This document shows positions 1-61,626 of a stretch of DNA of 61,627 nt, one piece after another (positions within the stretch are counted from its first letter, which is position 1; each line of letters begins with the position of its first letter). The DNA lies in the IMG/VR virus record IMGVR_UViG_3300037963_004084, positions 1 through 61,627 of that record; one strand, given 5' to 3'. The stretch is from a virus. Lineage: Duplodnaviria > Caudoviricetes. Position numbers and translations under genes: made by a program. Below the pieces are notes generated by a model that was given only the letters and a program-made list of their open reading frames with translations, made no database searches and was not told the DNA's origin.

Positions 1-98
1 TTTTCAGCGGGGGTAGATTTGGGGTCCGTAACTTTCTTGAAAAGATCTGACTGTCTCTCAAAAGAATTCAATAACGGCTCGATGTCGCCCAGAGGAGT
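1..98. repeat. Terminal direct repeat / circular assembly overlap (left copy)
   Basis: Bases 1-98 are identical to 61529-61626, and a reading frame runs in phase across the join, so the unit genome is 61,528 bp. Confidence 0.95.
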
Positions 99-9764: not shown

Positions 9765-9798
9765 GCTTAATGTATGTGTATGTTATTATTCTCCTACG

Positions 9799-16493: not shown

Positions 16494-17602
16494 ATACACC
16501 AGACCACGGCTCACGCGGACACGCGGAGTTCAGCCCATCCAGCCTTAAGTATGTGGCGGGGTGTGCGGGATACCACGGAAGAGACGGCACTAATGCCGCC
16601 GCCGAAATGGGAACCCGCATCCACGAAGCCTTGGAAGTCCACGATCCTTCTGCCCTCCACAATGAGCAAGAGCTACAGATCTACGATCAGATCGTGGAGA
16701 TGGAGGAGGCGTTCATGGGTAACTTCTCTGGGATACAAGAGGAGCACAATGAGATACAGGTAGACGTAGAATTGGATGGGACAGGCACATGGGGAACCTG
16801 TGACCGATTCCTGATTCTTGATTCCGGCACCAAGGCCGTGATGGCTGATTACAAAACAGGGATCAGTATCATTGACCCACCAGAAAAGAACTGGCAAGCC
16901 AAAGCCTACACAGTGGGGGCCTTCCAAAAATTCCCAGATATCGAAGAGATTGTCTTCGTGTTCTACGTCCCACAACACAACGCCAGCCTCCACCATACGT
17001 TTGAGCGTAGTGACGTAGATGGCATTGTCTCAGAGCTTAGTTCCGTAATCAAGAAAGCGGAGAAGATACGCCCCAAGTGGGATCAAGGGACTCCTGCGCT
17101 CGACGACCTTACGCCGAATGTGAACTGTAGGTTCTGTCGCCACGAAGATTCCTGCCCCGCTCTTGGTGGACTCGTCATCGAAGTAGCAAAGAAGATCAAC
17201 CCACAGCTACCCGACGTAGACATCGAAGAAACAGAAGACCCGGAGATTGTAGAGCAGTTGTGGGCTATTGCTAAGATCGTTTCTAACTGGGCTGACCGAT
17301 TTAAAAAGAAAGCCGTGGCCCTCGCCAAAGACGGTACCGAGTATCCTTCCCTCAAACTGAGGAGTATGGGGTCCTCTCGAAAGATAACAGACAACGAAAG
17401 TCTACTGGAAGTTGCGTCTGAGTTCGGGGTAAGTGCCGAAGAGGTGCTCCAACACGCAAATATTCCGCTGGCGAAACTCGCTAAGGCTATAGGAGATACA
17501 GCCGAAAAAGGAGGTAAGAGAAAATTATCTGAAAATTTCGTTGACGCCTGCCAAGATGCGGGCATTATCGAGACATCAGACACACGATACACTTTATCGT
17601 GA
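16490..17602 (+). CDS. Cas4-like PD-(D/E)xK nuclease (DUF2800-like)
   Basis: FSPSS..C, GTRIHEALE, GTCD, ADYKTG, NWQAKAY and the CRFC..C cysteine cluster. Confidence 0.85.
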   Translation: MNTPDHGSRGHAEFSPSSLKYVAGCAGYHGRDGTNAAAEMGTRIHEALEVHDPSALHNEQELQIYDQIVEMEEAFMGNFSGIQEEHNEIQVDVELDGTGTWGTCDRFLILDSGTKAVMADYKTGISIIDPPEKNWQAKAYTVGAFQKFPDIEEIVFVFYVPQHNASLHHTFERSDVDGIVSELSSVIKKAEKIRPKWDQGTPALDDLTPNVNCRFCRHEDSCPALGGLVIEVAKKINPQLPDVDIEETEDPEIVEQLWAIAKIVSNWADRFKKKAVALAKDGTEYPSLKLRSMGSSRKITDNESLLEVASEFGVSAEEVLQHANIPLAKLAKAIGDTAEKGGKRKLSENFVDACQDAGIIETSDTRYTLS

Positions 17603-41373: not shown

Positions 41374-43573
41374 TATTTTCGCGGAACTCTAGAGCGGCCT
41401 TTGCGTCCCGCAAAGCCATTTCTTGCTCATGTTTCCGCTGTTTGATGGCCATATCAAGCTCTGCTTTCTCTTGAGCGATCTGCATCTTAACTTGATGCTC
41501 CATCATTTTAGCATCTGGTTGTTCAGGCTGTCCCTCGGGGGCACCTTCCTGAGCTTGGTCTCTCTGAATCTTTTGTAGAGCCTTGGATGTATTGTTGATG
41601 GCTTCTTCTGCGAACTGAAGGATTTGTTTTGTCTGTCCGACGATTCCTTCGAGTGCGGGGTCTCCTGCGGCGAGTTGTACCGTCTGGCTGATATGCTCAT
41701 AGAAAGCTTGGAGAACCGGGAAGCTCTGCATGGGGTCGGCTTCCCCGACATTGATTTGCTCAATCAACTGCGACAAGACCGGGACATGAATTTCAAGGTG
41801 GGTACCGTGGAGCTCATTCCCAACGACAGGGACGGACTGACCCTCCATCAACTGCTGATTCTCAAAGTACGCAATCTTAAGATCAACGGTCGGACGCTTC
41901 TCGATATCTGCTGGAACATATCTGTCGGCAAGATCGTGGCCCACTCTGGTAGACACGATGTCGCGTGTCAGGTTTCGTCGGCCCACATCATCAAACTGCC
42001 CGCTGATTGCTTGGAGCTCGCGCAACGCCACCATGCGATTGGCATGGCTCCCGTTCCCGATAGACCGCACAGCTTTGGTTCTATCTACATCTAGAGTTTT
42101 AATAAACTCAGCGGGTACTCCTCTGTCTTCGCACCGTCGATAGAAGTCCATGACGGCGGGGTCTGGTTTTTTAGTGGTTACGACGCGCCGTACAATCTCC
42201 CGAAGGAGCCTGTTCCATGATGCGTAGAACAGGTTCAGGGACGCGCCGGATAGTCTGGTAGTGACATCCATGTCGGCCACCACCTGCATCTGGTTCCTGT
42301 ACGGTGAACTTTGATTCGGTCCATACGTGGATATGGTATCAGTGTTCAACGACAACTGTTGGGTGAGGTCCTGCAAAGCAGGCTGAACAGCAGTGCCAAG
42401 ATTCGGGATCGCTTTCTCAACGATATTTACATTCGGACTAAGTACGGCGTAAGCGCCATAGTAGGTGAATTGCAATTCGTCCAGAGACCTTTGAGTTTCG
42501 GGTTGGATCATCACCGCGGACGCGAGCATAGCTCCATCAATCTGCTGGCAACGCAGTCGGTTACTGGTCTGGACATGGGCGAAGATGCGTTGGCCTAGGC
42601 CACGAATCGAATGGTATGTACCGTTGCTGCCGACACCATAGGTGAACATCACGTAGGCTTGCTCGGCCTTTGCGTAACGAGAAACTTTCTTATATAGGAA
42701 ATCTTTAGGGCTGTTCTCTGCGGCGATGTAATGGCTGATGCTACAGTCCATCTCTTTGACCCAGAAATGCAGGACCCGCACCGAAGGGTTTTGGATACCG
42801 GTGTACAGGTCATTGTTCTTCATCTCGGCCTGCATCTGCTCGTAGTCATAGCTACCGTAGTCTCGACCGTTGGTGGTGGCGTTTTTGGCGATGACGCGCT
42901 TTACCTCTTCCACATTCCAACCCACAGCTTCTGCTGCCTCTGGGTTTTTGATATACGAATAAAGTTCGTGCAGAAGATAGTTCCGCCGCCCTACCGCAAT
43001 GTCCACGGCATCTTCGTTCGCTGAGGTTTGTCTCGGGATCAGAATATCCGTGAACCCGCCCACACGAAACTTCCAATCATCAGGGGAGTCAAAGTAAGCA
43101 ACCGCCACCCCATGTTTAATAAACATGGTGCACAGGCGTAGGTAGGCGCTGTGGAACTCAGGCCAGTTCCGCATGAGGTGGGTCAGTTCTTCCGCGACGA
43201 TTTCTTCCGCCGGTTTGATTTCGCTGGCTTCCCCCTGCGTACCTCGTACCTCGACAAATCTTTCCAGAGAAGAATAAAGGTCAACGTAAGCAGACAGAGC
43301 CACATCCAAGAGTCGTTGGGCATCGCCAAAATTTAGGTTTGTTTTGAGCTGCTGACCGCTCGCGGCAAGCCCCGCGCTACTGTATGGGGCCGCGCCATCA
43401 AACATGGCGTCCACCCTAGCTCGGTTTACCGCAGACCTCTCATCAGCTCTGAGCAAAGTATTGAAGATACCTACCGCGCTTTTGACATCCTTGAGTCTGC
43501 TAGCCACAGGTTTTCCCTCATCCGTAAGGGCACCCAAATCCAACCCATCAATGTCCAGCGGGTATTCGCTCAT
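41363..43573 (-). CDS. Portal protein
   Basis: 736 aa, first gene of the head operon, podoviral size, with a Gln-rich helical C-terminus. Confidence 0.8.
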   Translation of the reverse strand: MSEYPLDIDGLDLGALTDEGKPVASRLKDVKSAVGIFNTLLRADERSAVNRARVDAMFDGAAPYSSAGLAASGQQLKTNLNFGDAQRLLDVALSAYVDLYSSLERFVEVRGTQGEASEIKPAEEIVAEELTHLMRNWPEFHSAYLRLCTMFIKHGVAVAYFDSPDDWKFRVGGFTDILIPRQTSANEDAVDIAVGRRNYLLHELYSYIKNPEAAEAVGWNVEEVKRVIAKNATTNGRDYGSYDYEQMQAEMKNNDLYTGIQNPSVRVLHFWVKEMDCSISHYIAAENSPKDFLYKKVSRYAKAEQAYVMFTYGVGSNGTYHSIRGLGQRIFAHVQTSNRLRCQQIDGAMLASAVMIQPETQRSLDELQFTYYGAYAVLSPNVNIVEKAIPNLGTAVQPALQDLTQQLSLNTDTISTYGPNQSSPYRNQMQVVADMDVTTRLSGASLNLFYASWNRLLREIVRRVVTTKKPDPAVMDFYRRCEDRGVPAEFIKTLDVDRTKAVRSIGNGSHANRMVALRELQAISGQFDDVGRRNLTRDIVSTRVGHDLADRYVPADIEKRPTVDLKIAYFENQQLMEGQSVPVVGNELHGTHLEIHVPVLSQLIEQINVGEADPMQSFPVLQAFYEHISQTVQLAAGDPALEGIVGQTKQILQFAEEAINNTSKALQKIQRDQAQEGAPEGQPEQPDAKMMEHQVKMQIAQEKAELDMAIKQRKHEQEMALRDAKAALEFRENSDR

Positions 43574-43580
43574 TGTTTAA

Positions 43581-43609
43581 GTGATATCCTTTTGAAACTT
43601 AATAGTCAA
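43581..43609 (-). promoter_or_regulatory. Sigma70-like promoter for portal, leaderless geometry
   Basis: TTGACT-N17-TATCAC, ATG 7 nt downstream. Confidence 0.5.
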
Positions 43610-43660
43610 TTATGTAAATTTCACTGGACAGGGTAGGAGGGCGTTAATACAAGGGGGGCT

Positions 43661-43876
43661 ATGAAATGGAACCTCATTGCAGCAAGTGCATCATGCATCC
43701 TGTTTGGTGTATCATGCTCCACGGCTGATCTGGGTGGGCAAGTGCCCCTCCCATTTACGTCGCCATCAACGTCGGCAAAGCTGGACCTCGAACTCCGGCC
43801 TATGCCACCAAAATTCTGTATCGGGCTCGATCTGGTACCGACTGAGCCCGAAGCAGGGACTACAGCAGACAAGTAG
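43661..43876 (+). CDS. Small lipoprotein
   Basis: MKWNLIAASASCILFGVSC signal and lipobox; upstream TGGACA-N17-TACAAG. Confidence 0.6.
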   Translation: MKWNLIAASASCILFGVSCSTADLGGQVPLPFTSPSTSAKLDLELRPMPPKFCIGLDLVPTEPEAGTTADK

Positions 43877-43950
43877 GGACCGATTGTGTGGGGGTGGTCC
43901 CGACTTTAACCAACTGGCAGGCAGTCCAGTTACCCCCACACAGATGATTT

Positions 43951-44010
43951 ATGGCAAACAAACCAAAACCAAAGGGCACTAAGCCGAAGCCGAAGCCGAA
44001 GCCCTACTAA
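43951..44010 (+). CDS. 19-aa Lys-Pro micropeptide
   Basis: MANKPKPKGTKPKPKPKPY-stop, directly followed by a terminator. Confidence 0.45.
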   Translation: MANKPKPKGTKPKPKPKPY

Positions 44011-44015
44011 GATCA

Positions 44016-44050
44016 AGCCCGCCTTGGAGTAGCTGCCGAGGCGGGCTTTG
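44016..44050 (+). terminator. Intrinsic terminator-like hairpin
   Basis: AAGCCCGCCTTGG...CCGAGGCGGGCTTTG. Confidence 0.65.
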
Positions 44051-44216
44051 TGTCGATTTCATCGACATGTTCTGAAAACGTGTCGATTGCCGTGACTCAA
44101 GGATTTCACGGGGGTGGGTTGGGGGAACCTTTTACGGTTTATATAAACCGGAGAAGTGCCTGATTTTTGGGTGTACACCGGCTTACTACCGCAGGTTAAG
44201 GGGGATATACACAATC

Positions 44217-44663
44217 CTACCCCCACACACTCTTGAGGAGCTTGTCCACGGGTACCTGCTTCCTGATTCCTGATTCGTGTTTCAGGGATACGTATCGTGT
44301 ATTGCCGCGCATAAACTCTGAGACCATGGATACACGGCCCGCGGTGCGGCCTCGGGATTCGGGTTTCACGCAGTAAACACAGCCATAGGGGGTGATTGCG
44401 AACCGTGGAAACTCGGGGATCACCTGAGCCCCCTCGAAATCAAAGATATGGGACAAGGATAACTCCGGTGTGGGGGCATCTATGGAATCGTGGGCGAAGT
44501 GGACGCGCTTCCCATCGTCGTTAGTCAGGAGGGTCTTCCAGCGGTCGCCGTTCCACCATCGGCGAAGCCGCTTACAGGTCTTCGTGTTAAATACAAACCC
44601 CGAGGGCAGTAGCACATAATCGCGGGCGTTGGGGATCGGTTGGGTCTGTGGGAGCGTGTCCAT
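44217..44663 (-). CDS. Tandem NUMOD4-like DNA-binding protein without HNH domain
   Basis: Two units: IPNARDYVLLPSGFVFNTKT and IPEFPRFAITPYGCVYC...RYVSL..SGIRKQVPVDKLL. Confidence 0.55.
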   Translation of the reverse strand: MDTLPQTQPIPNARDYVLLPSGFVFNTKTCKRLRRWWNGDRWKTLLTNDDGKRVHFAHDSIDAPTPELSLSHIFDFEGAQVIPEFPRFAITPYGCVYCVKPESRGRTAGRVSMVSEFMRGNTRYVSLKHESGIRKQVPVDKLLKSVWG

Positions 44664-44678
44664 TCAAATGTTTTCGTT

Positions 44679-44774
44679 ACCCCCTATATAAAAAGTTTCT
44701 TCTAGATTTAGTCAAACTTAATTTCTAGAAATTTTGTTGGAGTCCCTCTAGAAGAGACTTTATAGGTGGGGGGT
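44679..44774. repeat. AT-rich imperfect inverted repeat with a central palindrome
   Basis: AAGTTTCTTCTAGA ... AATTTCTAGAAATT ... TCTAGAAGAGACTT. Confidence 0.7.
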
Positions 44775-45062
44775 CTACTCTGAAATAAAGTTTGACCCCT
44801 CCCTCTTCTCCGCTTTCGCCTTACGAAGCTCTTTGAGCCGTGCACGGTTTTTTAAATAATATGCGCGGTTGTATGCACGCTTTTTTTCGGCCAGCTCGGG
44901 GTCTGCCAATAGGTCTAACGCCCTTTGTTTCAGTATCTTAGCCTTGTTCGCAGCGTAGTACTTCCGTTGGTAAGCCTTTCGTGCTTCGTGGTTCTTTAGA
45001 TAGTATTCGTGCTTCTTCTGGTCACGCATACTGCGTTTTATCGTGCATTTGGGGGTAGTCAA
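44775..45062 (-). CDS. Small basic helical protein (YY.KN repeats)
   Basis: EYYLKNHE, KYYAANKA, AYYLKNRA; start uncertain (ATG at 45029 possible). Confidence 0.6.
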   Translation of the reverse strand: MTTPKCTIKRSMRDQKKHEYYLKNHEARKAYQRKYYAANKAKILKQRALDLLADPELAEKKRAYNRAYYLKNRARLKELRKAKAEKREGSNFISE

Positions 45063-45194
45063 ATTTTTTCACACAACATACACACACAACACATAGTTGT
45101 GAAAAAAATGAGGCAGGGTGGGGGTGGCGTGGTTCGTGATTCATGGTGCAGGATTCGGGCGCGGGATTCGCGGATTTGGGTCTGGACCCATTGT

Positions 45195-45770
45195 GGGGTG
45201 ATAGGAGCTTCCCCGAGGTTCAAGTCCTCCCTCTCCCTAGCTGACCAGATGCTGTGTTCTGGTGATCCCCGCCCGGGATCTCAAAGTGCGGGTGTCGTCA
45301 ATAGACGGCTTGTCCATGCGACGAATAGCATGGGGGCTCTACCGGATGGAATCTGCCTGAGTCCTGAGCGCCTGCCATGTAGCGCAATACAAGTAGCATG
45401 TGCTAGCCTGAGAAGTAACAAGCCTTTGCGCTACCGTAGCGCAATAATGCTTCGTCGGATAGGCCGGGATTGACGAAGGTAGCAATACCCCTTGCAAATA
45501 GTGAGGTTCATTCTCAATGTGACTGGATGATTGGTAGACCATTCTCACGCCACCTTGTGGCGTGTATCGTGTGAGAGTAACCCGTGCTAGGACCACGGGG
45601 GAGGAGCAGGCGTGTGGGCTACCGTGGCCAACAGGGGCGCGATTAGATGCGCGTAAAGATTAGACCCCGACAAACCTTGAGTACAAGGTGACGCCCAATA
45701 GCTTATGATGAAATTGGGGTGTTCATATTTCACCACCGTGAATGACTCACGATGGTGATTCGTGAACATC
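45195..45770 (+). ncRNA. Candidate large structured RNA (~580 nt)
   Basis: No credible ORF; more than 12 consecutive hairpins with G-U pairs, GCAA/AGUA/AAUA loops and a T-loop-like GAGG-UUCAAGU-CCUC. Confidence 0.55.
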
Positions 45771-45798
45771 ACAATAACATCACAAATATCCAAGCAAT

Positions 45799-46242
45799 AT
45801 GACCGTCAAAGAACTGAAAGCCAAATTGACTGCCCTTGACCTGCCAACCAGCGGAAACAAGGAAGCGCTCAAAGCTAGGCTCGCCTCGGCGAACAAGCCT
45901 AAGCCTACCAAGAAGTCGAAGGGTGACCCCGCCGCCGCCGCCGCTGTGGCGAATGTCCGGCAAGGCGTGGAACTCCTTCACTCGGAGTTTGGGGAGGACG
46001 AACTGAAGGGGATTCTCCACTTCAAGCCCTTCTCCAATAACCCGAAGAGCTTCGTGCTGAGGCTTCCCAACATGAAGGAAGCCGCTGCCGCGTTGCCCTT
46101 CACAAACGAGGCGAAGGAGGCGATTGCCCTCCTCCGCAAGTTGCGCGGGTCCGTCGCAGCCGCATTCGGAGATGCGAACCAGTGCTGGGTCCTCCACGCT
46201 AGTGGGGGTGCCGCAGTCTTCTCGCAGCTCCATCTCAAGTAA
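45799..46242 (+). CDS. SAP-domain protein
   Basis: MTVKELKAKLTALDLPTSGNKEALKARL matches the SAP consensus; A-rich leader; UUCG hairpin after the stop. Confidence 0.8.
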   Translation: MTVKELKAKLTALDLPTSGNKEALKARLASANKPKPTKKSKGDPAAAAAVANVRQGVELLHSEFGEDELKGILHFKPFSNNPKSFVLRLPNMKEAAAALPFTNEAKEAIALLRKLRGSVAAAFGDANQCWVLHASGGAAVFSQLHLK

Positions 46243-46446
46243 CCCCCACATTCATCCCCGCTCTTCGGAGCGGCGGGTGACATGGTTCATGGAACCTGTG
46301 TCCATGAACCCTGTCACCTGATTCCTGATTCCCGATTCATCATACGTGATCCACGGAATCCGGTGAGGTATCACGCTCCCCGATACTCAGGTATTGAGTT
46401 ACCTAGACCAGTTAAGGCACTGGCTGTGAACACAGCTAGGGAGTTT

Positions 46447-47137
46447 CTCCTAGGCATGAGGCTAAACTGCCTACGACTTTATGTGGACTGATATATTAAC
46501 CTTAACCAAGGAGGGTTCTACCATGAACTAAACACAGCCCACTGCGGGAAGCAGACGACCCTGCACCCACCCGTTCCGCGCCCACACCTGTGGGACTGCC
46601 CTTGCGGCGAGAACGTGGGGTGTAGGATAGTCATATACCCAACCACCCGAGTTCTGGAGCGGTGGTTGGGGTGTATGCACCCACACTTTCACTTTATCAC
46701 TCTGTTTGCCTGACGAGCGGTAGGGCAAACCAACATGATAAGGCCGCGACCCCTCCTAGGCATGAGGCTAAACTGCCTACCAACCCTAACCTTCTCCTCT
46801 AGCACTCTGGCATTGGAGTCGTATACCACATGAGTCTTCCCGCGGTGGGAGAATGACAAATCCGCAACGGTTGTGGACCGCCGAATTGGTCCTAGGCTCG
46901 CCTCTCCGTGCCTCTCATAATACAGAAAACGGAGACACGCTGGGTGTCGTGTGAACCACGCCCGCTCCTAGGCATGAGGCTAAACTGCCTACGACTCTGT
47001 TTGCCTGACGAGCGGTAGGGCAAACACAATAGCACCGCTAAGGGTTGTCCCTTCCGCAGCCCATTAAACAGGAAGGCCGAGCGGTCGCACTTAGAAAGGC
47101 TCAGCGACTCCCTCCTAGGCATGAGGTTAAACTGCCT
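46447..47137 (+). repeat. Repeat A x4: CTCCTAGGCATGAGGYTAAACTGCCT
   Basis: Copies at 46447-46472, 46753-46778, 46965-46990 and 47112-47137 (the last has one substitution). Confidence 0.95.
46699..47025 (+). repeat. Repeat B x2: ACTCTGTTTGCCTGACGAGCGGTAGGGCAAAC
   Basis: Identical 32-mers at 46699-46730 and 46994-47025. Confidence 0.95.
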
Positions 47138-47306
47138 GTGTCTGATCAGCCACCTGTCAGACCACTAGCGGTATACCGCACCAAGACGCTGAAGCGATAA
47201 GTCCTACGGACGCGCAGGCCCGCCGAGTCTAGGGTGGTTCTCTTTCCAAGGGTAAACCCGAACCCTTTTCAATCGGGCAAGTAGTATAACTAACCAAACC
47301 AAAACA

Positions 47307-47555
47307 ATGGCTACATACAGAGTAGTACCCACCCACCGCATCATGGCGGACCCTGTGCGTCGCAGACGCGCACACCTACCCAAACTATCGGAGGAATCCC
47401 TCCGGTGTAACACGCTGGTCAAGTTCGCTGACCAGACAACGGCGGGCCTCAGTGCCCAATCAGACCCCCGCGCTGGGGTCGTGTCAGTAGACCACGCACT
47501 CGGACAGAATGTCTGGGAAGAGGTGGTTCAAAAGATTGCCCGTAGAAACAAGTAG
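47307..47555 (+). CDS. Early hypothetical protein
   Basis: A-rich leader AACTAACCAAACCAAAACAATG. Confidence 0.6.
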   Translation: MATYRVVPTHRIMADPVRRRRAHLPKLSEESLRCNTLVKFADQTTAGLSAQSDPRAGVVSVDHALGQNVWEEVVQKIARRNK

Positions 47556-47557
47556 AT

Positions 47558-47860
47558 ATGAAGTATGCAATCCCAATCGGACTCGCCCTCGGCGGTGTCC
47601 TGTCCATGCTGTGCGGAACTTACTGCATAGCCGCAGACCTTGAGCTTCAACAGCTCGGGGTAGACGTTGACTCAACGTGGAGTTACCTCTACACATGGGT
47701 CAGTTGTAGTATGGCCCTTACCGCCATTGTCACCCTTGAAGTAGTCCACCAGCGGGAGTGCCGCAGGTGGGATGAAGAGATGAGCAGACTGCAATCATGC
47801 AGTGAGCGAATACTGATTCCTGAACCCTTTACCCGGAATTATTATGAGAAAAGAAATTGA
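47558..47860 (+). CDS. Early membrane protein (2 TM)
   Basis: Two hydrophobic segments. Confidence 0.6.
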   Translation: MKYAIPIGLALGGVLSMLCGTYCIAADLELQQLGVDVDSTWSYLYTWVSCSMALTAIVTLEVVHQRECRRWDEEMSRLQSCSERILIPEPFTRNYYEKRN

Positions 47861-48032
47861 ATCCCTAATTGACAAGCACGATGAATCGTGCGAGAAACGG
47901 GGCATCGACCCCAAGACTGGGGAGCCTAAGCCCACACCCCAAGACCTTCTGGAGCAGGAGGCGTTTGGTTACCCGATATCCCTTGGTCGGCCCGTCCTCC
48001 CTGCTAACTTCCCAACCCCACGAACCCCATGA
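47844..48032 (+). CDS. Early hypothetical protein
   Basis: Overlaps both neighbours. Confidence 0.5.
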   Translation: MRKEIESLIDKHDESCEKRGIDPKTGEPKPTPQDLLEQEAFGYPISLGRPVLPANFPTPRTP

Positions 48033-48421
48033 GTGAGAGACTATATATAACCTACTTCGATGCTGCCACATCACGGGATGTAGGGCATGTCACCCTCATG
48101 TCTCCCTTTGATGGGGATAATGCACCCATGCCTGACAGGGTAGCCCGAGATAACATGCCCGACCATGTGGCTGTCCTGATGGACAGCACCACCATACACT
48201 GGGACCTGCGGGTCAAGAGTGTGCGGGATGCCAACCGTGAGCTACTCTGTAGTGGAGTTCGTCGGGGGTGGATATCCCCCGAGACGGGGGAGTGGTTGGA
48301 GCTAGGGGCGAAACACCCATTCCGCCCCCGAAACCGCCGCAAGCGTACCCGACTCAGGAAAACCCTGACAGGTGTAGCTGTAGCTGGAGCAGTGATAGGA
48401 ATCCTGATCCTAATCTTTTAA
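48029..48421 (+). CDS. Early protein with C-terminal membrane anchor
   Basis: Basic patch followed by GVAVAGAVIGILILIF. Confidence 0.6.
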   Translation: MSERLYITYFDAATSRDVGHVTLMSPFDGDNAPMPDRVARDNMPDHVAVLMDSTTIHWDLRVKSVRDANRELLCSGVRRGWISPETGEWLELGAKHPFRPRNRRKRTRLRKTLTGVAVAGAVIGILILIF

Positions 48422-48446
48422 CCAATTTCGGGGTAGCTCCCCGAAC

Positions 48447-48598
48447 GTGAGTGACTGAATAATCTTTCTACAACAGAGATAAGGTATCTGTATCTTGAGC
48501 AGGGGTCAACCGACTGAGCAGAGAGAGCGGAGTGCGAGTAGGCAAACGATGCTATGTTGGAGCCGAAAGTTGAGGGTAAAAAATAAATCCCTCCTCAC
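48447..48598 (+). ncRNA. manA-like structured RNA
   Basis: Closing stem GUGAG/CUCAC, 5' UGACUGAAUAAUCUUUC, internal UAAGG and 3' hairpin GAGGG-UA...AAU-CCCUC; resembles my recollection of the manA motif. Confidence 0.55.
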
Positions 48599-48632
48599 AT
48601 CTTATATTTATTATGACACCATATGTAAAATT

Positions 48633-49067
48633 ATGACACCATATGTAAACACCCATGCCGTCTCACGGCACAACTCCGAGGCGAAGACCCTCGACACAAC
48701 CACTTACCGGATCGGTAAGTGGAGAATAAACCTTGAGGGGTTTATTGATTACTACGGAACCTACAACTACAGGTTTGGAGTTAATGGAGGCACCCCGACC
48801 TACAGTGGAGAGATCTACTGGAGCGCGGACACCAATGGGGTGGGTTACAGGAATCACCTGAAGAAAGCCGACGCTTTCCTCGATAAGATGAGGACTGAGC
48901 ACCCCCTCCACGGCCCCCCGAACATCAACCCCTTCGGGTACCTCATCCCCTTGGATGGACAACCCAAGGGCTGCATTGGGACTCATGTCTCCGATCCGGG
49001 GGAATTCGCAATGAACCGCGAAATCGCAGAGGAGAATCCCGATTACCCCGCGTGGATCTTTGAGTGA
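48633..49067 (+). CDS. Early hypothetical protein
   Basis: MTPYVNTHAVS...; the track's upstream extension overlaps the RNA candidate. Confidence 0.6.
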   Translation: MTPYVNTHAVSRHNSEAKTLDTTTYRIGKWRINLEGFIDYYGTYNYRFGVNGGTPTYSGEIYWSADTNGVGYRNHLKKADAFLDKMRTEHPLHGPPNINPFGYLIPLDGQPKGCIGTHVSDPGEFAMNREIAEENPDYPAWIFE

Positions 49068-49074
49068 ACCCACT

Positions 49075-49249
49075 TTCTGGCCCCTCGCCACGCAAGTCGC
49101 TTGGGGCCTATAGTAGGCCGAACGGCATGGGTAAAGTGGCCCATGTCATCCCCCATAATGGCCCGTTGTTGGAGGGGGAACCCAGTCGGGGGATAATACC
49201 GACACTGGTTGATGTAGCTCAGGCCAGAATAAAGAACCGTGCTGCGAGG
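49075..49249 (+). ncRNA. Candidate multibranch/pseudoknotted RNA
   Basis: TTCTGGCC/GGCCAGAA closes four hairpins; CCTCGC (49083) is complementary to GCGAGG (49244). Confidence 0.4.
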
Positions 49250-49286
49250 AGATGCCCCCGCCTCTCCCATGTAGGATAAACCCCGC

Positions 49287-49721
49287 ATGTATAACCAACC
49301 CGGAAAAAAGGGGGGCAAATTACTTTGCGAATCCATGATACAACATCACATTGACAAAGACGGGGAGTGGGGGCTGTACCCCGACGCCCCCTTGAGTAGG
49401 CTGCTTAAGCGGAGCTTTAGGGATGTCTCCATCATAAGACTGCCTACAGTTTGGCTGTCACCTGTAGGGTATGGTAAACCTGTTACCGACGGAGTGCACG
49501 TTAAGATCCCTCCTCCACCGCCACCCCCTCCCATGACAGAGTTTGAAAAGTCTCTGGCATGGATGAAAGAGTTCATCGACGATGTTGAGGACGAGGCTCA
49601 GTCAGTCTGTGAGGACGAGTCAGAGCATTGGCTCGGGGCGTGGGGTAACCCCACTAAGGAAGACTTCCTCAAGCACCTTGCCGTTGTGAGCAAGGGCGAA
49701 TCATCTCCCGACGTCGGCTGA
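49287..49721 (+). CDS. Early hypothetical protein with poly-Pro linker
   Basis: 144 aa containing a run of eight prolines; start may be 49336. Confidence 0.55.
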   Translation: MYNQPGKKGGKLLCESMIQHHIDKDGEWGLYPDAPLSRLLKRSFRDVSIIRLPTVWLSPVGYGKPVTDGVHVKIPPPPPPPPMTEFEKSLAWMKEFIDDVEDEAQSVCEDESEHWLGAWGNPTKEDFLKHLAVVSKGESSPDVG

Positions 49722-49810
49722 CGTCACAATGCAACCCAACCCTGCATCCTGTATCCTGATTCCTGTAGGTTGTAGGGTTAACCACAAATAAGGAATCAAA
49801 GTATAAGCAA

Positions 49811-50734
49811 ATGAGTAGTAAATCCCCCTCCACTAGCGAGGGAATCAAAGTAAGGCTGACTGTATGCCACTTCAACCCACAGGTTCAAGACAAGCAAGCA
49901 GCAGCAGAGCAGGCTAAAAAGAAAGATGCCAATGCGAAACAGCACAAGCATCAGATTCACTTAGTCGATGCCGATGACATCAAGGCACTGAAAGAGGTTG
50001 AGGACGATGGGCGAGCCGCATTCCATCGGTTGGTATCCGCACCGTGGCTTGACTACAAGCCCGACCCCGACGAGCAGGTCAAGCTGTCCACCAAGGGATG
50101 CTGGTACTTCCTGTCCACTGAATACCTGTCTGAGTATCTGGATACAATGTCCAAGTACAGGCAGCGGTTTGAGATGGCCAAGCAGGACTTCATCCGACGG
50201 TACCCTGACCTTCTCCGTAAGGCCGCGACTAGCCGAGGTATCGGGAACGACTTCATCAGGTTCAGACACCGGTTCCCTTCCCAAGATGCAGTTGGGGATC
50301 GTATCTCCTTCACTACGTTTGAGGACCCGATTGTCACCAGCTTCATGCCGGATGTATTCGACGAGCGGCTCCGTCATGAGATGGAGAAACTCGACGAGCG
50401 TAAGAAGGAACAGGTGGAGTATGGACTTCAGGCTGTAACCCTCGACGTCACGAAGGAAGTGATTAAGTCCGCAGCCCATGTGGGCCAGCAGTGCGAGGCT
50501 AAGAACAAGTCCAGCCGCAGCCCTATCACGGAGTCTGTAGTAGAGCGACTCGTAGAGAAGCTGGAGATGGCGGAACGCAAGGCCCCCCGACCCAGCACTG
50601 ATCTGGACGAAGCTATCCTTATCGGCAAGAGCCTCCTTGAGGATCTCGATGCTGACATTTTGAAAGCCAATGAACACTCCCGCAACAAGGTCATTGCAGG
50701 AGCTAACCGAATGAAAGACCTGATCCAACTGTAA
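49811..50734 (+). CDS. DUF3150-like helical protein
   Basis: WYFL.TEYL.EY..TM..YR..FE.AK.DF...YP.L...FPS pattern; directly upstream of the AAA/vWA pair. Confidence 0.55.
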   Translation: MSSKSPSTSEGIKVRLTVCHFNPQVQDKQAAAEQAKKKDANAKQHKHQIHLVDADDIKALKEVEDDGRAAFHRLVSAPWLDYKPDPDEQVKLSTKGCWYFLSTEYLSEYLDTMSKYRQRFEMAKQDFIRRYPDLLRKAATSRGIGNDFIRFRHRFPSQDAVGDRISFTTFEDPIVTSFMPDVFDERLRHEMEKLDERKKEQVEYGLQAVTLDVTKEVIKSAAHVGQQCEAKNKSSRSPITESVVERLVEKLEMAERKAPRPSTDLDEAILIGKSLLEDLDADILKANEHSRNKVIAGANRMKDLIQL

Positions 50735-55168: not shown

Positions 55169-55633
55169 ATGATAGCGCCAACCGTGTTAAAGAATCCCGT
55201 GGTAGCTGAGCTACCCTTTGAAAAGCAATCCGTGCTTTCCCTCAACATAAGTAATCGGGCTAGACGAGCACTGAATTATGCGGGCATAAAAACTGTAGGG
55301 GATATCCTCGGCAAGTCCGCATCCGAGATCATGCGGGTGAGGGGCGTGGGGAATTCAGCCCTACTAGACATCCTCCACTGCATGATCGACAGAGCAGTGG
55401 TCTTGCCGGATGACTTGGATCAGGAGCTCACTCCTTGCGTGGACTGGTACCCTGAAACCCAACGCCTTCTTTGGTCTCAAAAGAATGCGGTGGGTGGTTA
55501 CTGGTCACGCCCCAGACCTAACTACTTCTTCACCGCAGAGGTGGAGCATAGCTTAGATCTATACGAATACAGGCGTGAGGTAGCTGCGGTATACGCGGGC
55601 CGTCATTTTATGAAACACCTAGTTAATAAATAA
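55169..55633 (+). CDS. RNA polymerase alpha-CTD-like domain protein
   Basis: SVLSLNISNRARRALNYAGIKTVGDILGKSASEIMRVRGVGNSALLDI aligns with alpha-CTD ([47 protein letters not shown]). Confidence 0.8.
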   Translation: MIAPTVLKNPVVAELPFEKQSVLSLNISNRARRALNYAGIKTVGDILGKSASEIMRVRGVGNSALLDILHCMIDRAVVLPDDLDQELTPCVDWYPETQRLLWSQKNAVGGYWSRPRPNYFFTAEVEHSLDLYEYRREVAAVYAGRHFMKHLVNK

Positions 55634-57584: not shown

Positions 57585-57814
57585 TCCATATAGTTCGTGA
57601 GTTCTTGCCCAACGGTATTCCCATCATGATCGACGGGGTATTAGACGGGGAACGTGTGGCCCCCGCTTCTACCCGCATCTTCCCCCTTAGTGTGGGGGAA
57701 GATGCGCCGTCTGTGATTGGCACTCCCTACTATTGCCACCACGACCCCGACGGCCTTGGTAAGAAGATAGCCACCCGCCTCACCAAGGTTTATGTAGACT
57801 CAATCCCCGACTAA
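57581..57814 (+). CDS. Hypothetical protein
   Basis: ATGA-coupled; converges on the giant ORF. Confidence 0.55.
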   Translation: MIHIVREFLPNGIPIMIDGVLDGERVAPASTRIFPLSVGEDAPSVIGTPYYCHHDPDGLGKKIATRLTKVYVDSIPD

Positions 57815-60800
57815 GGGGTGTCGGACCCTTGACCCGTGTAGACATCCTCGTATTGTTTCTCTTGAGAGATTCTTCTTACCGCCGCGTCATAAATACGGGC
57901 TCGTTTGTCGGGCCATTCACCGTCGGGGTCGGCTTTCAAGAGATCTATATACCAAGCCTTTGAAGGGAGGTAACGCTCGGTCTTACTTCTCATTACCGCC
58001 TTAGCTCGGTTCTTCCCAACACCCGCTTTGGTAAGCGCGTTGTATATCTGCTCATCCGTGAGCCGAAGTGCGGGCTCTTCAAAGTTTCTCGATGTTTCAA
58101 TCATGGAGATCAGTTTCCGATCAGTTTCCACCGTGTTCTTAACGGCTCTTCTTGCTAGGTCTTCGATCTCTTTGTCGGTGTACGACACACTACCGTCCTT
58201 GAGTTTATCTTTAATAAGGGTTCTTACCCCCTCCCTTTCTCGGTTTATCTCATAAGCTACTGTCCGCATACCTTGAGATGGATCTACCACCCTCACTTTG
58301 AGTGGTGCCATAACGGAGGAGAGAGTTTGCTCCGCTCTTTTCTGAACGTCTGGATCGTCGGCGTCTCTTTCCTTGTAGTACCTCTTAAGCTTCTCAAGAT
58401 TAGAAGGCAGCACAGTATCCAGCACAACCCTGTCAAAGACAGCCGAAAGCCTTTCGGTATTGTCCATCCCTTCTTTCAAGAGAGGTCTACCATCTGGGTC
58501 TTCACCTTTAATAAAGAGCTTCGCCAGTGTATCTGGTACTTGGCCGAAAGGAATCGCGTCAACTGGGTCGAATTCTAGTTTACCCGTTGTACGGTTGGTC
58601 GAAAATGTCTGCCCCAAGAATCTCTCAAGGTACGTCATGTACATTGTAGCGGCAGCTTCCTTGAACCCTGTACCTGCTTCCCCTTCCTTCATCCCTGCGA
58701 GGGCTTTTATGAGAGCTTGTTGTGATCCATCAAGCACGGGAGACATCCCGTTGATGTAAGTGATATCAACCGAGTAAAGCTTGTTCGGATCAATCTCAGA
58801 GGGTAGCCCCGAGAACATATCAATAATCTGGGGCACGGAGGTCAGCCCCAAGTCAATCAGGGTTTCACCCTTAACGTGAAAGTATGAGTTGTTCCGTGCG
58901 TAAGATGGTCTATTCGCTTCCAACAATTCTTCTTCCTCTCTATCAAGTATGACCTTGAGAGCAAGGAACGTGGAGCCCGTGACAACTCCAGCAAAAGAAC
59001 CATGTGTCAGCATGGACCCCAGCCGCCGCTTCCTTCCATTACTCTCAATGATGGGATTCCTGTCCTTGGTCTCTCGATGAGAAGTACCCGTCAATATTTG
59101 GTTGTAGAAAATCCTAAATTGATCCACAAAGAAACCACTGAATGCATCGAAGAAAAATGGGTTTATTCTCCTAATAACCCTCTGCAACAGCGTATGTTCA
59201 GAGTACGTGGGGGCAACTGACACAGTTTTCTGGGCCGCAAGTTGTTGTTGCGCCTCTTCAGACATGTTCAGGTAACCCAAGTCTACCCCGTTATCTTTCT
59301 CGTACTTCTGCGCTTTGTTGAGGACGCGCATTTCTTTTTTGTATATAGCAACTTTGGTAGCCGTATCAATGGCTTGAGCTATAGATGCTACGATATCATA
59401 AGATATTTTGAATGGGGCTTTAGCTACGTCTTTTACTTTACCCAGTCTGGATTTCTTTGATGCCTCAAAGACATCCCCCAAAGACTCGAAGAAAAGTTCA
59501 CTTATGTCCCCCGACCTTCCTCCCGCAAGTTGTTGGTTAATCAAGGTTAGTTCTAAGGTCCTCTGATCAATACCAAGCATCCTGTATTCTGTGGCGCTTA
59601 GCTCCGTTTCACTACCGGGCCTACGTTCGGGAGATATTACAGACCCAGCTCTGAAAGGTTGGCGCAATCTGGATAAAAACAGGATAGCCAATTCTTTCGC
59701 AACATGGTGGGGACCCACCCCATTAGCAGACCCGTATGTAGTCACTGCTGTAATCATATTACGCAGCGGGTAAGCGGGGATATTGTAAGCAGTCTTAGCC
59801 ATGAGGAATATACCATTCACAATCTCGGTAGATCTAAATAGCATTCTCGTCGCTGCTTTTACCGGCTCTCTATCTTTGATAAGCCGAAGCACTGTCCGAC
59901 CCTCGAACATAGATGTACCTTTAGTGGTGCGGCTCACCTTTTGGTAATCACGAAGTGCTTTAAACCCTTCGGTAGGGATAAACATATCGTAAGTGAAATC
60001 GAACACCTCCCGACCCCTCTTTACAGTTTGGGATTCGTCTTCATCTGTAGTTACCCTGTCCTTGGAGTCTATGTAATCAGATAGCAACCTTCCGGTGCGT
60101 ACATTGGTGTATTCATTACCATCTAGGCCAGCGTCTATCGCTTCCTGTAGGGTGAACACGAAAGCCTTTTCAAAGTCACCATCTACCACACCACCGATAC
60201 GTTTAAGCTGACTAAAGAAGGACGACTGCTCTACCATTCTGGTCAAGGCATTGAAGGTTTGCTCGAACGCGATTAAACCTTTCTCTTCAAACGTCCCATC
60301 TTCATTGAATTCCAAACCGTATTGACCCAAAAGATACCTCACCCTTGGATCAAGATCCGTTTTCTTCTTGAGAGCGTCTGTATCTAGCTTTAGTAGCCGC
60401 CTAAGTTGTGGATGCTTCTTACTCAAGATGCTCGCCACATTTTGCGCCTCAACATCTCCGCGAGCCCTCTCCTCAATCGCCTTGAGTAGAGTGTTCATTT
60501 CCGCAATAGTTTCATTGCGCGAATCTTTAACCCTTAATTCAGCTCTTATCTTGGCTTCCTCAGCCATCTCGGTTTTGGAAAGCGCGGTTACCCGCTTCGC
60601 CTCCGCTTCTTCTTCAGGGGTTTTGAATTCTACTTCCTGCCCTAGTTTAGCTCGCAGCCCCTGCATCCTAGCTAATTCTTCTTTTATCTCTACATCTACC
60701 CGCAGCTCTTCAAAGTAACTCACGGCCACATCCCTGCGCGCTGCGAACTTTCCATTGGGTTTTTGAATTTCCTCTAAGTATGCAAAATCATCGTAACCTT

Positions 60801-61626
60801 TGTATCTACGAGTGAGATACACACCGCTCTGCCTGTCGATAACCATGTTGAGCCTACCTCCCCGAACTTCGCCCAATCCGTAATTCTTGGAGACTATCTT
60901 GCTCATGGCATCCAAAGAAGCTCTGATGGACTTCATCTTGAGGACAATCTCTGGGCCTAGCTTCGTGTCGTCATTGATGGTTTGATACGCAATCTTTTGT
61001 TTCTCTTTGTATGCTTTGACTCTCTCAACGCGAGCGTCCTCCAGAGGAATTCTAACCAATACACGCTTTATACTTGCAAGGGCCTCGGGTTCAGCATCTG
61101 TATCGGGGCGCTTACCGGCCTTTACTTCTTTCTTAATCCGCTTCTTTACCGCTCTGTAGGTTGCCTTCAAATTTTCTTTAAACTCTGGTTCTACGTCTAG
61201 GTTATCAGTTGTCCCCGCCGCCGTGTTCAAAGCTACCAGTATGTCATTAGGAATATCGTTCTTGTAGGCCCTCTTCAATAGCTTGATAAGAACTGTAAAG
61301 TCGGAAGTCTTCTGGCCTTCCATTGCTGTCGCCCACAACTGTAGCTTCTTTATAATCTCTTGCACCCGTGGGTCCTGATCCCCGATCTTAAGCTGTTGGG
61401 TAATCTTCTTGATGCCCTTTAACGAACTAGCCCCAGACCATTTTCCATTATTAAGTTCCAGCACTAGTTCCGGCTGCAATTCCGACTGAGCTACTTGCCT
61501 CTCCCTCACGGCTTTTATAGCTTCTAATTTTTCAGCGGGGGTAGATTTGGGGTCCGTAACTTTCTTGAAAAGATCTGACTGTCTCTCAAAAGAATTCAAT
61601 AACGGCTCGATGTCGCCCAGAGGAGT
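57811..61626 (-). CDS. Giant polyvalent-like / internal virion protein, C-terminal part
   Basis: The 1,262-aa track ORF is open to the window end and in frame with 9764->1; helical, containing PAYPLRN and a hydrophobic segment. Confidence 0.85.
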   Translation of the reverse strand, partial: TPLGDIEPLLNSFERQSDLFKKVTDPKSTPAEKLEAIKAVRERQVAQSELQPELVLELNNGKWSGASSLKGIKKITQQLKIGDQDPRVQEIIKKLQLWATAMEGQKTSDFTVLIKLLKRAYKNDIPNDILVALNTAAGTTDNLDVEPEFKENLKATYRAVKKRIKKEVKAGKRPDTDAEPEALASIKRVLVRIPLEDARVERVKAYKEKQKIAYQTINDDTKLGPEIVLKMKSIRASLDAMSKIVSKNYGLGEVRGGRLNMVIDRQSGVYLTRRYKGYDDFAYLEEIQKPNGKFAARRDVAVSYFEELRVDVEIKEELARMQGLRAKLGQEVEFKTPEEEAEAKRVTALSKTEMAEEAKIRAELRVKDSRNETIAEMNTLLKAIEERARGDVEAQNVASILSKKHPQLRRLLKLDTDALKKKTDLDPRVRYLLGQYGLEFNEDGTFEEKGLIAFEQTFNALTRMVEQSSFFSQLKRIGGVVDGDFEKAFVFTLQEAIDAGLDGNEYTNVRTGRLLSDYIDSKDRVTTDEDESQTVKRGREVFDFTYDMFIPTEGFKALRDYQKVSRTTKGTSMFEGRTVLRLIKDREPVKAATRMLFRSTEIVNGIFLMAKTAYNIPAYPLRNMITAVTTYGSANGVGPHHVAKELAILFLSRLRQPFRAGSVISPERRPGSETELSATEYRMLGIDQRTLELTLINQQLAGGRSGDISELFFESLGDVFEASKKSRLGKVKDVAKAPFKISYDIVASIAQAIDTATKVAIYKKEMRVLNKAQKYEKDNGVDLGYLNMSEEAQQQLAAQKTVSVAPTYSEHTLLQRVIRRINPFFFDAFSGFFVDQFRIFYNQILTGTSHRETKDRNPIIESNGRKRRLGSMLTHGSFAGVVTGSTFLALKVILDREEEELLEANRPSYARNNSYFHVKGETLIDLGLTSVPQIIDMFSGLPSEIDPNKLYSVDITYINGMSPVLDGSQQALIKALAGMKEGEAGTGFKEAAATMYMTYLERFLGQTFSTNRTTGKLEFDPVDAIPFGQVPDTLAKLFIKGEDPDGRPLLKEGMDNTERLSAVFDRVVLDTVLPSNLEKLKRYYKERDADDPDVQKRAEQTLSSVMAPLKVRVVDPSQGMRTVAYEINREREGVRTLIKDKLKDGSVSYTDKEIEDLARRAVKNTVETDRKLISMIETSRNFEEPALRLTDEQIYNALTKAGVGKNRAKAVMRSKTERYLPSKAWYIDLLKADPDGEWPDKRARIYDAAVRRISQEKQYEDVYTGQGSDTP
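61529..61626. repeat. Terminal direct repeat / circular assembly overlap (right copy)
   Basis: Identical to 1-98. Confidence 0.95.

Follow-up and report, generated by a model that had tools for sequence, protein, structure and literature searches.

The window analyzed here is a complete IMG/VR virus record of 61,627 bases (99% complete) from an uncultured marine phage. At positions 45063-49334 it contains a region that we read, with moderate confidence, as hypervariable and accessory and as composed of independent RNA cassettes, among them a unit made of a large RNA and the gene for a SAP-domain protein. The region lies at the junction of the leftward structural genes (portal, o148, and o95) with a rightward block opened by the SAP gene, and its units read as a mosaic of independently inherited pieces, mostly RNA genes or RNA leaders rather than protein genes. 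Four kinds of RNA element are seen. Directly 5' of the SAP gene, and seen only there, is a structured RNA that matches no family in Rfam 15 (the gap A RNA). Farther downstream is an array of cassettes headed by a pseudoknot and sometimes closed by a hairpin, whose cargos are swapped, inserted, and deleted between close relatives. A manA RNA in a 5' leader and a self-contained 243-nt element that other phages share complete the set.

Gene calls were taken from a list of open reading frames (ORFs), from a comparison of the small gene o82 with its relatives, and from a corrected start for the ORF listed from 49287, which truly begins at ATG 49335 because its first 48 nucleotides (nt) belong to a conserved noncoding element; the same start is used in the related locus L004. 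With these calls, four stretches are free of ORFs: 45063-45798 (gap A, 736 nt), 46243-47306 (gap B, 1,064 nt), 48422-48632 (211 nt), and 49068-49334 (gap D, 267 nt), or 2,278 of the 4,272 nt in 45063-49334. An earlier note on this DNA had described about 1.8 kilobases (kb) of a 4-kb stretch (45195-49249) as noncoding, and the figure is in fact slightly higher, at approximately 2,061 of 4,055 nt. Its description of an otherwise tightly packed genome agrees with a mechanical control that counts the bases under no ORF of at least 80 codons, which amount to 1,438 of 4,273 in the island (34%) versus 2,025 of 57,354 elsewhere in the genome (3.5%). It had also correctly placed the SAP gene between the two largest noncoding blocks, gaps A and B.

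It is scarcely credible that the ORF-free stretches are instead decayed or tiny protein genes, or that they are read in another genetic code. Phage early regions are rich in tiny genes, and the 80-codon criterion did miscount an o95-like gene in relatives. However, the rest of the phage genome uses the standard code, and no long plus-strand frame appears when any one of the stop codons is taken as sense. With TGA reassigned, the longest plus-strand frames are 225 codons (46243-46920) and 268 codons (45647-46453), the latter merely extending the SAP gene, and with TAG reassigned there is one 276-codon minus-strand frame (46697-47527) that overlaps o82. The latter is a real gene, with 21-30 substitutions at the third codon position versus 10-15 at positions 1 and 2 in four relatives, across which it also carries an in-frame 3-nt indel. 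The conserved 243-nt element in gap D, on the other hand, contains 1-nt indels, and the substitutions in gap A are compensatory and not periodic.

The features of the first part of the region are as follows.

45063-45170: conserved divergent intergenic control region, between the leftward o95, o148, and portal genes and the rightward block
About 45163-45770, plus strand: gap A RNA, a large structured RNA of approximately 600 nt with 27 predicted helices (from the covariation alignment)
45799-46242, plus strand: SAP-domain gene, 147 amino acids (aa), with a Pfam SAP domain at the N-terminus joined by a basic linker to a C-terminal alpha/beta domain (approximately 100 aa)
46243-46364, plus strand: tail of the SAP cassette, with two hairpins (one with a UUCG loop and one a long inverted repeat at 46276-46318) and a GATTC cluster

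The structure of the gap A RNA was derived from an alignment of four sequences (A5; the window, L004, L088, and L089). Its consensus contains 167 base pairs with 98.8% of cells paired, and 33 of these pairs have changed on both sides. When the partners were slid by 1-3 columns, only 0-2 compensatory pairs and approximately 40% pairing remained, and none of 500 shuffles reached the observed values. The body lies within a long-range closing helix (45191-45200 with 45692-45701), which is conserved without compensatory change (RNAalifold), and a terminal hairpin (45718-45770) ends 28 nt 5' of the SAP ATG. Gap A folds better than its shuffles on both strands, with z of -4.50 on the plus strand and -3.54 on the minus strand. 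The plus strand is favored since 95 of 656 cells are G-U pairs, which would be mismatched if read from the opposite strand, and since the alifold energy reaches -187.5 there versus -147.9 on the minus strand.

A cmscan of 43400-50000 returned the manA RNA described below and four chance-level hits, and no Rfam family, ROOL and GOLLD included, matched gap A at E<=5. Absence from Rfam 15 is the sole basis on which we set apart as new the RNA of gap A, the pseudoknot of gap B, and the 243-nt element of gap D. ARAGORN called 0 tRNA genes in gap A by default and gave no transfer-messenger RNA (tmRNA) hit at thresholds down to 90%; at 70-80% it made only implausible calls, on either strand. The stem of a T-loop-like hairpin at 45214-45228 covaries, and its loop sequence is not kept in L088 or L089. 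Because this loop is not conserved, the tRNA or tmRNA reading of gap A falls. A long-range pair proposed earlier, CCUCUCCC with GGGGGAGG, is not kept in L089.

A search with a SAP profile identified six metagenome loci, and in four of these gap A plus SAP is matched by DNA at 68-74% identity. The gap A core lies 5' of SAP in five of the six SAP loci whose upstream gap is whole: the window, L086 (99.8% identical to the window), L004, L088, and L089. L090, which is cut by a contig end, retains only the 3' part of gap A. L087 has a structured leader of approximately 540 nt (z -3.58) in which both strands of the closing helix and the hairpin before the start codon are kept and the interior differs. 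A covariance model of the core (45286-45466) matched 4 of 86 sources (1.42 megabases, Mb), all of them SAP loci, and the exact core pattern was found in IMG/VR in the close relative only. On this evidence the gap A RNA and the SAP gene travel together. They do not co-diverge, as every one of the six pairwise comparisons of the RNA body gives 79-90% identity but the window SAP allele is only 59-61% identical in protein to the other three.

We expect that the gap A RNA would be a functional RNA in its own right, a large phage RNA in the manner of ROOL and GOLLD, that it would be cotranscribed with SAP, and that SAP would be the protein cargo of one cassette and not the organizer of the island. 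The main rival, which we consider unlikely, holds that a dedicated ribonucleoprotein is assembled from the gap A RNA and the SAP protein, or that the RNA serves as a leader through which the protein controls its own gene, with the SAP motif or basic linker binding RNA and the other blocks being unrelated neighbors. The constant adjacency of RNA and gene, which no terminator-like site separates between the final hairpin of the RNA and the start of SAP, would fit such a pairing, as would the restriction of the core to SAP loci and the retention in L087 of the closing helix and pre-start hairpin around another interior. L005, which lacks SAP, has at the same position an unrelated ORF-free leader of approximately 830 nt (7567-8400, minus strand) paired with an unrelated 138-aa gene (7150-7566, minus strand), followed by a hairpin and CCTGTATC direct repeats, a layout like that in the window made of different parts. 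The basic N-termini of the C-domain homologs described below are typical of nucleic-acid binders, and a SAP-containing exonuclease has been solved bound to an RNA stem-loop, according to the titles of its PDB entries. Against this rival, the same RNA type (86-90% identical) occurs with two SAP alleles that are only approximately 60% identical in protein, the C-domain has no RNA-binding family or fold, and all examples come from one lineage.

The SAP protein itself is a fusion of a SAP domain to an unfamiliar domain, as the earlier note had read it. Pfam SAP (PF02037) matches residues 1-30 with 38.7 bits versus a cut-off of 23.9 (E 7.2e-10), and the N-terminus of an AlphaFold2 model (predicted local distance difference test score, pLDDT, 87.5) superposes on solved SAP domains with Z 5.7 and a root-mean-square deviation of 1.7 A over 38 residues at 32% identity. 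The C-domain matched nothing in Pfam, PHROGs, or PDB sequences, and fold searches gave best values of E 0.39 (Foldseek, PDB), E 0.11 (BFVD), and Z 5.5 and 6.2 (VIA); the best ESM Atlas score, 0.85, was under the lead level. The RNase P protein Rpp14/Pop5 (PF01900) was rejected as a match for the C-domain at 17.8 bits versus 23 (E 0.0037), and by structure the lead amounted to one RNase MRP chain at Z 4.6, which is noise, with no Pop5 chain in the PDB profile search.

Seven close homologs of the SAP protein were found, and the C-domain has approximately 20 distant homologs among 1.84 billion representatives, the cluster members being metagenome proteins. When ten of the C-domain homologs were scanned with Pfam, SAP was present in one (P0008), and the other nine aligned with basic Pro/Ala/Lys-rich N-termini. 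Scans of viral contigs with the C-domain alignment or with P0125 returned the known relative only, or nothing. Literature on the SAP domain, bacteriophages, and RNA-binding yielded no phage SAP-RNA system. The tail of the SAP cassette is kept together with the SAP gene in L088-L091 to approximately 46329-46364.

The DNA on either side of this unit bears on another explanation. The control region contains an A/T-flanked inverted repeat, a cluster of three GATTC motifs, and a weak promoter-like match (45068-45097), and it is the sole part of gap A that can be aligned to L005, L015, and L025 (73-86% identity). GATTC triplets, defined as three motifs within 60 nt, occur only three times in the genome, at 45138-45165, 46320-46334, and 16806-16820 (expectation in shuffles 0.05), and the first two bracket the gap A-SAP unit exactly. 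SAP could accordingly be a DNA-binding early protein acting on these flanking clusters as a regulator, a partition-like factor, or a recombination accessory, with much of the noncoding DNA working as DNA. We regard this as rather improbable. It would fit the similar repeats that flank SAP in L088-L091 and the different repeats (CCUGUAUC) that flank the different gene in L005, the naming of SAP as a DNA-binding motif in the title of PDB entry 1h1j, and the AT-rich, iteron-like DNA found at this position in a distant sub-clade. It leaves unexplained the 33 compensatory pairs, the G-U cells, and the strand asymmetry of gap A, as well as the covariation in both stems of the gap B pseudoknot. DNA binding by SAP may also hold alongside the RNAs.

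In gap B, a 28-nt repeat occurs four times and forms an H-type pseudoknot at the head of each cassette. An upstream 4-nt strand (the first strand of stem 1, S1) pairs with GAGG in the loop of a 6-base-pair (bp) hairpin (stem 2, S2), and the remaining loop is A-rich. The array is composed as follows.

46446-46473, plus strand: H1 pseudoknot, with S1 UCUC/GAGG, S2 UAGGCA/UGCCUA, and an A-rich loop 3
46474-46698, plus strand: cargo 1, whose interior (46502-46699) is swapped for an unrelated 255-nt stretch in L004
46699-46730, plus strand: T1 hairpin, 32 nt (UUUGCC, a 13-nt loop, GGCAAA), closing cassette 1
46752-46779, plus strand: H2 pseudoknot
46780-46963, plus strand: cargo 2
46964-46991, plus strand: H3 pseudoknot, with only 3 pairs in S1
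46994-47025, plus strand: T2 hairpin, 100% identical to T1 and directly 3' of H3, which makes an "empty" cassette in the window
47026-47110, plus strand: cargo 3, a short module kept in L004
47111-47138, plus strand: H4 pseudoknot
47139-47277, plus strand: cargo 4, also found behind a variant pseudoknot in L088

Among relatives S1 appears as CCUC/GAGG, CCUG/CAGG, and UCUC/GAGA, and S2 appears as UAGGCA/UGCCUA, UGGGCA/UGCCCA, and UGGGAG/CUCCCG. Because both stems covary, a function of the pseudoknot at the RNA level is indicated. A strict pseudoknot pattern has 13 sites in 1.43 Mb (window plus loci) versus 0-2 in block shuffles; 12 of the 13 are in this clade, all on the early-gene strand, and one is elsewhere (L053). 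The pseudoknot matched no Rfam family at E<=5, and none of 7 promoter-like and 13 terminator-like sites falls on its four copies. The T hairpin was found in IMG/VR in the close relative only. A hammerhead reading of its loop (CUGACGAG) was rejected, with no match to an Rfam hammerhead.

The cassettes differ between relatives that are otherwise very similar. The window and L004 share a backbone that is 93% identical; beyond the swap in cargo 1, L004 has a 147-nt tRNA cassette inserted between H3 and T2 and a 200-nt unit inserted before o82. Between the window and L005, the unit at 46746-46996 shows 91.7% identity, compared with 68-77% for the coding DNA that can be aligned. L089-L091 carry one pseudoknot only, 30 nt 5' of o82. 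The end points of the rearrangements between the window and L004 adjoin H1/T1, H3/T2, and the leader repeat. This pattern would be expected if cassettes were exchanged by recombination at conserved boundary motifs, much like the PeSL (promoter-early stem-loop) gene shuffling of T4-like phages, with all units probably transcribed rightward from the control region at 45063-45170.

The tRNA of L004 (6389-6525, minus strand) is unusual, combining a clean acceptor stem of seven pairs, a D arm, and a T arm with a 66-nt two-hairpin insert in the anticodon loop. It scores 45.7 bits with the Rfam tRNA model versus a cut-off of 29, and ARAGORN misses it in standard use, seeing it only when introns are allowed, with the 66-nt insert at position 32. 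Decoding by this tRNA is doubtful.

With a CRISPR repeat or an RNA anti-CRISPR (solitary repeat units) in view, the pseudoknot was also sought in prokaryote genome contigs, where exact matches to one degenerate 23-nt pattern gave seven single-copy hits and no arrays. Approximately two of the seven are expected by chance, and two hits in Spirosomataceae lack the stem-1 partner. Five Chloroflexi/Dehalococcoidia genomes (L093:1357-1379, L094:1871-1893, L096, L098, and L099) carry the 28-nt pseudoknot including the stem-1 strand. There it forms the 3' end of a conserved noncoding leader of approximately 260 nt, which matches no Rfam family and lies 5' of the frame for a hydrophobic peptide of 32 aa, itself conserved and basic at the C-terminus. 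In a sample of 201 genomes of that order it was present in one, which was the query genome. We claim no host from this link. A more ambitious form of the cassette interpretation is an "RNA integron", in which the pseudoknot would mark the start of each exchangeable cargo and the first slot would hold matched RNA-protein pairs acting early as ribonucleoproteins (the gap A RNA with SAP in the window, and another large leader with another small protein in L005). We think this improbable; if it were true, finding the pseudoknot in leaders of Chloroflexi would suggest that a host factor is shared and might even indicate the host.

The remaining features of the region lie downstream of the array.

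47307-47555, plus strand: o82, a small gene that sets the 3' limit of gap B
47558-48421, plus strand: o100, o62, and o130, three small genes (ORF list)
48427-48603, plus strand: manA RNA (RF01745), ending 30 nt 5' of the ATG at 48633
48633-49067, plus strand: o144a, 144 aa (ORF list), kept behind a manA-like RNA in L004 and L091
49073-49315, plus strand: gap D element, 243 nt with sharp borders and a nearly invariant 92-nt core

The manA match covers the full model (1-192 of 192) with 58.8 bits versus a gathering score of 55.2 (E 1.9e-12), and it aligns poorly in the middle of the model. Compared with L004, a single comparison sequence, it has 3 compensatory pairs on the plus strand, for a null of 0.55 (p 0.02), and the minus strand has none. 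It is located in a potential 5' untranslated region (UTR), an arrangement shared by L004 and L091. manA-like matches under the cut-off were found in 3 of 39 related records, two of which lack SAP, and in L091. Between manA and the next gene is a perfect 20-nt tandem duplication (48610-48649); the ATG in its first copy leads to a stop after 7 codons, and that in its second copy opens the 144-aa ORF. The 243-nt element is present in L002/L005, L083, and L084 with abruptly diverging flanks. An overlapping 71-aa ORF is excluded there by two 1-nt indels, and 5 of the 66 predicted pairs are compensatory. The genes o100, o62, and o130 matched no Pfam or PHROG family; o130 has a hydrophobic segment at its end, and this stretch is partly kept in L004, L015, L090, and L091.

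The distribution of these blocks indicates that the island is not built around the SAP gene. A portal search of IMG/VR gave 79 related loci, most of them on contigs of approximately 60 kb. SAP is present in one of these 79 (tblastn) and in one of 41 related virus records. Relatives without SAP carry manA-like RNAs (G004 and G007), pseudoknot cassettes (L005 and L015), and the 243-nt element (L005, L083, and L084, the last a 100%-complete record), which leaves gap A as the only block tied to SAP. The earlier note had proposed that the whole island is one early RNA-protein system built around the SAP gene, with SAP chaperoning or assembling the RNA modules as decoys, antitoxin mimics, or scaffolds against host defense, and had suggested co-occurrence of SAP and the RNA blocks as a check. 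Co-occurrence held for gap A and failed for manA, the pseudoknot cassettes, and the 243-nt element, and we consider the full model very unlikely. It could appeal to the fact that all elements share a strand and fit into 4.3 kb where the rightward block begins, and to the close packing of several distinct structured RNAs. However, every block except gap A occurs in relatives without SAP, and SAP-bearing relatives in turn miss blocks, with L004 lacking the 243-nt element and L089-L091 having one pseudoknot in place of four. Scans with Pfam and PHROGs, the only ones made for this purpose, gave no defense or anti-defense family. The expectation that the blocks are conserved did prove right in relatives, on the plus strand. 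The statement that the noncoding DNA is densely structured stands for gap A, manA, and the pseudoknot stems and is weaker for the gap B modules and the element at 49073-49315.

Elsewhere in the family, the 3.5 kb beyond o148 has a median of 29.5% uncovered bases in 52 loci versus 8.1% elsewhere, and 32 of the 52 contain an ORF-free run of at least 500 nt there. In a distant sub-clade (L080:7504-9450, L082, L054, L040, and L064) the corresponding DNA is AT-rich and poorly paired, with short direct repeats (TTAACAAC, ATTATCAATTATC) and many broken pairs, and it resembles iterons or operators more than it does a structured RNA; seven distant loci gave no Rfam match at the gathering score. Since the 80-codon criterion counts small genes as uncovered (this is how the o95-like gene of relatives was caught) and the distant sub-clade resembles repeat DNA, we do not claim a family-wide RNA island.

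Several points weigh against a region of independent RNA cassettes. Recombination as the mechanism is something we infer from the end points of the rearrangements. Given the character of the distant sub-clade, part of the noncoding DNA at this position may act as DNA, and the bracketing GATTC triplets fit a DNA-level role for SAP. The linkage of the gap A RNA to SAP may be shared descent only, since all loci that carry both belong to one phage lineage. The pairing of gap A in a single-sequence minimum free energy (MFE) structure was kept no better than by chance (12 pairs kept and 21 broken), the compensatory pairs alone standing out in the same test (6 versus 0.94). Covariation in the cargos is sparse, with 1 of 68 pairs in one case and 4 of 51 in another (two in a pseudoknot stem and two in cargo 4), and the fold energy of 49068-49290 is no better than that of shuffles (z -1.25). 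The gap B cargos and the 243-nt element show little covariation because the available copies are too alike. Weighed together with these points, a set of independently inherited cassettes remains the interpretation that we favor.

As for the phage as a whole, neither a blastn search with the island nor a tblastn search with the portal found a cultured relative, with 0 matches among 50,697 deposited phage records. The genome encodes a portal, a large terminase, a family A DNA polymerase, a helicase, a MoxR-like ATPase, and a VWA/DUF2201 protein. A giant minus-strand frame of approximately 4,500 aa is split between 1-9782 and 57811-61626 (3,260 and 1,271 codons), and since it crosses both ends the record is circularly permuted; neither part has a Pfam or PHROG match. 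A 154-aa protein (55169-55633, plus strand) contains an RNA polymerase alpha-subunit C-terminal domain (Pfam E 5e-9), and no RNA polymerase of the phage's own is recognizable in the genome. The o95 gene (44775-45062, minus strand), which adjoins the control region, is made of repeats of a Y-Y-x-K-N/R-type motif and is kept across sub-clades. From gene order alone we infer that the region would be early, or first-expressed, as the earlier note had put it.

Phage accessory regions are usually read as sets of small protein genes, and in this one about half is RNA. Beside manA it contains at least three structured elements outside Rfam models, namely the 600-nt RNA, the repeated pseudoknot, and the 243-nt element. 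Should these cassettes be transcribed, they would provide a compact natural set of candidate phage RNAs, and the gap A RNA with the SAP protein offers a clear pair for asking what large phage RNAs do.

Among known systems, manA RNAs were described by Weinberg et al. 2010 (PMC2864571) as almost exclusive to marine metagenomes, T4-like cyanophages, and two gamma-proteobacteria, and as commonly lying in 5' UTRs. The element found here resembles that family in matching the full model above the cut-off and in occupying a potential 5' UTR in a marine phage. It differs in that this phage is not a T4-like cyanophage, as its family A DNA polymerase, 61.6-kb genome, and gene of approximately 4,500 aa show, and in that the downstream gene has no annotation related to mannose, nucleotides, or photosynthesis. 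Self-assembly of manA RNAs into 8-, 10-, and 60-mers is reported in a 2026 preprint (10.64898/2026.07.01.735769), which shows the family to form cages, and a purely cis-regulatory role is therefore no longer certain.

ROOL and GOLLD RNAs are reported to be encoded in phages and prophages, often near tRNA islands (10.1101/2024.12.08.627333). The gap A RNA is similar to them in its size of approximately 600 nt, its multi-helix structure with strong covariation, and its phage origin, and the region of a close relative holds a tRNA. In contrast to ROOL and GOLLD, it falls outside both Rfam models, has so far been seen in one narrow lineage, and lies directly 5' of a protein gene. The region also recalls phage tRNA islands, which are likewise accessory regions of clustered small structured RNA genes, and L004 has a tRNA-like gene inside the array. 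However, the window has no tRNA, the L004 tRNA carries its insert, and the other cargos are not tRNA-like. The SAP protein shares with other SAP-domain proteins (PF02037) the N-terminal helix-extended loop-helix, by both sequence and model, and departs from them in its fusion to a family-less domain of approximately 100 aa, most relatives of which carry a basic low-complexity N-terminus instead.

Compact H-type pseudoknots with an A-rich third loop are known from the preQ1-I and SAM-II riboswitches and from luteovirus frameshift signals. The gap B pseudoknot has the same topology, in which stem 1 (4 bp) and loop 1 (1 nt) are combined with stem 2 (6 bp) and an A-rich loop 3 (6 nt), but it occurs four times in tandem at the heads of cassettes and not once before a gene.

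Comeau et al. 2014 (PMC4122927) reportedly dealt with PeSL cassettes of T4-type phages. In the description of Arbiol et al. 2010 (PMC2839356), PeSL elements of these phages join a sigma-70 promoter to a terminator stem-loop and have flanking protein ORFs. Like PeSL, the motif in gap B is short, conserved, and repeated between variable units in a hyperplastic region, and indels and replacements end at or beside it. Unlike PeSL, it has no promoter-like match, it is a pseudoknot, and its cargos are mostly noncoding. The pattern of swaps suggests that phages may exchange RNA genes in the modular way in which protein ORFans are shuffled.

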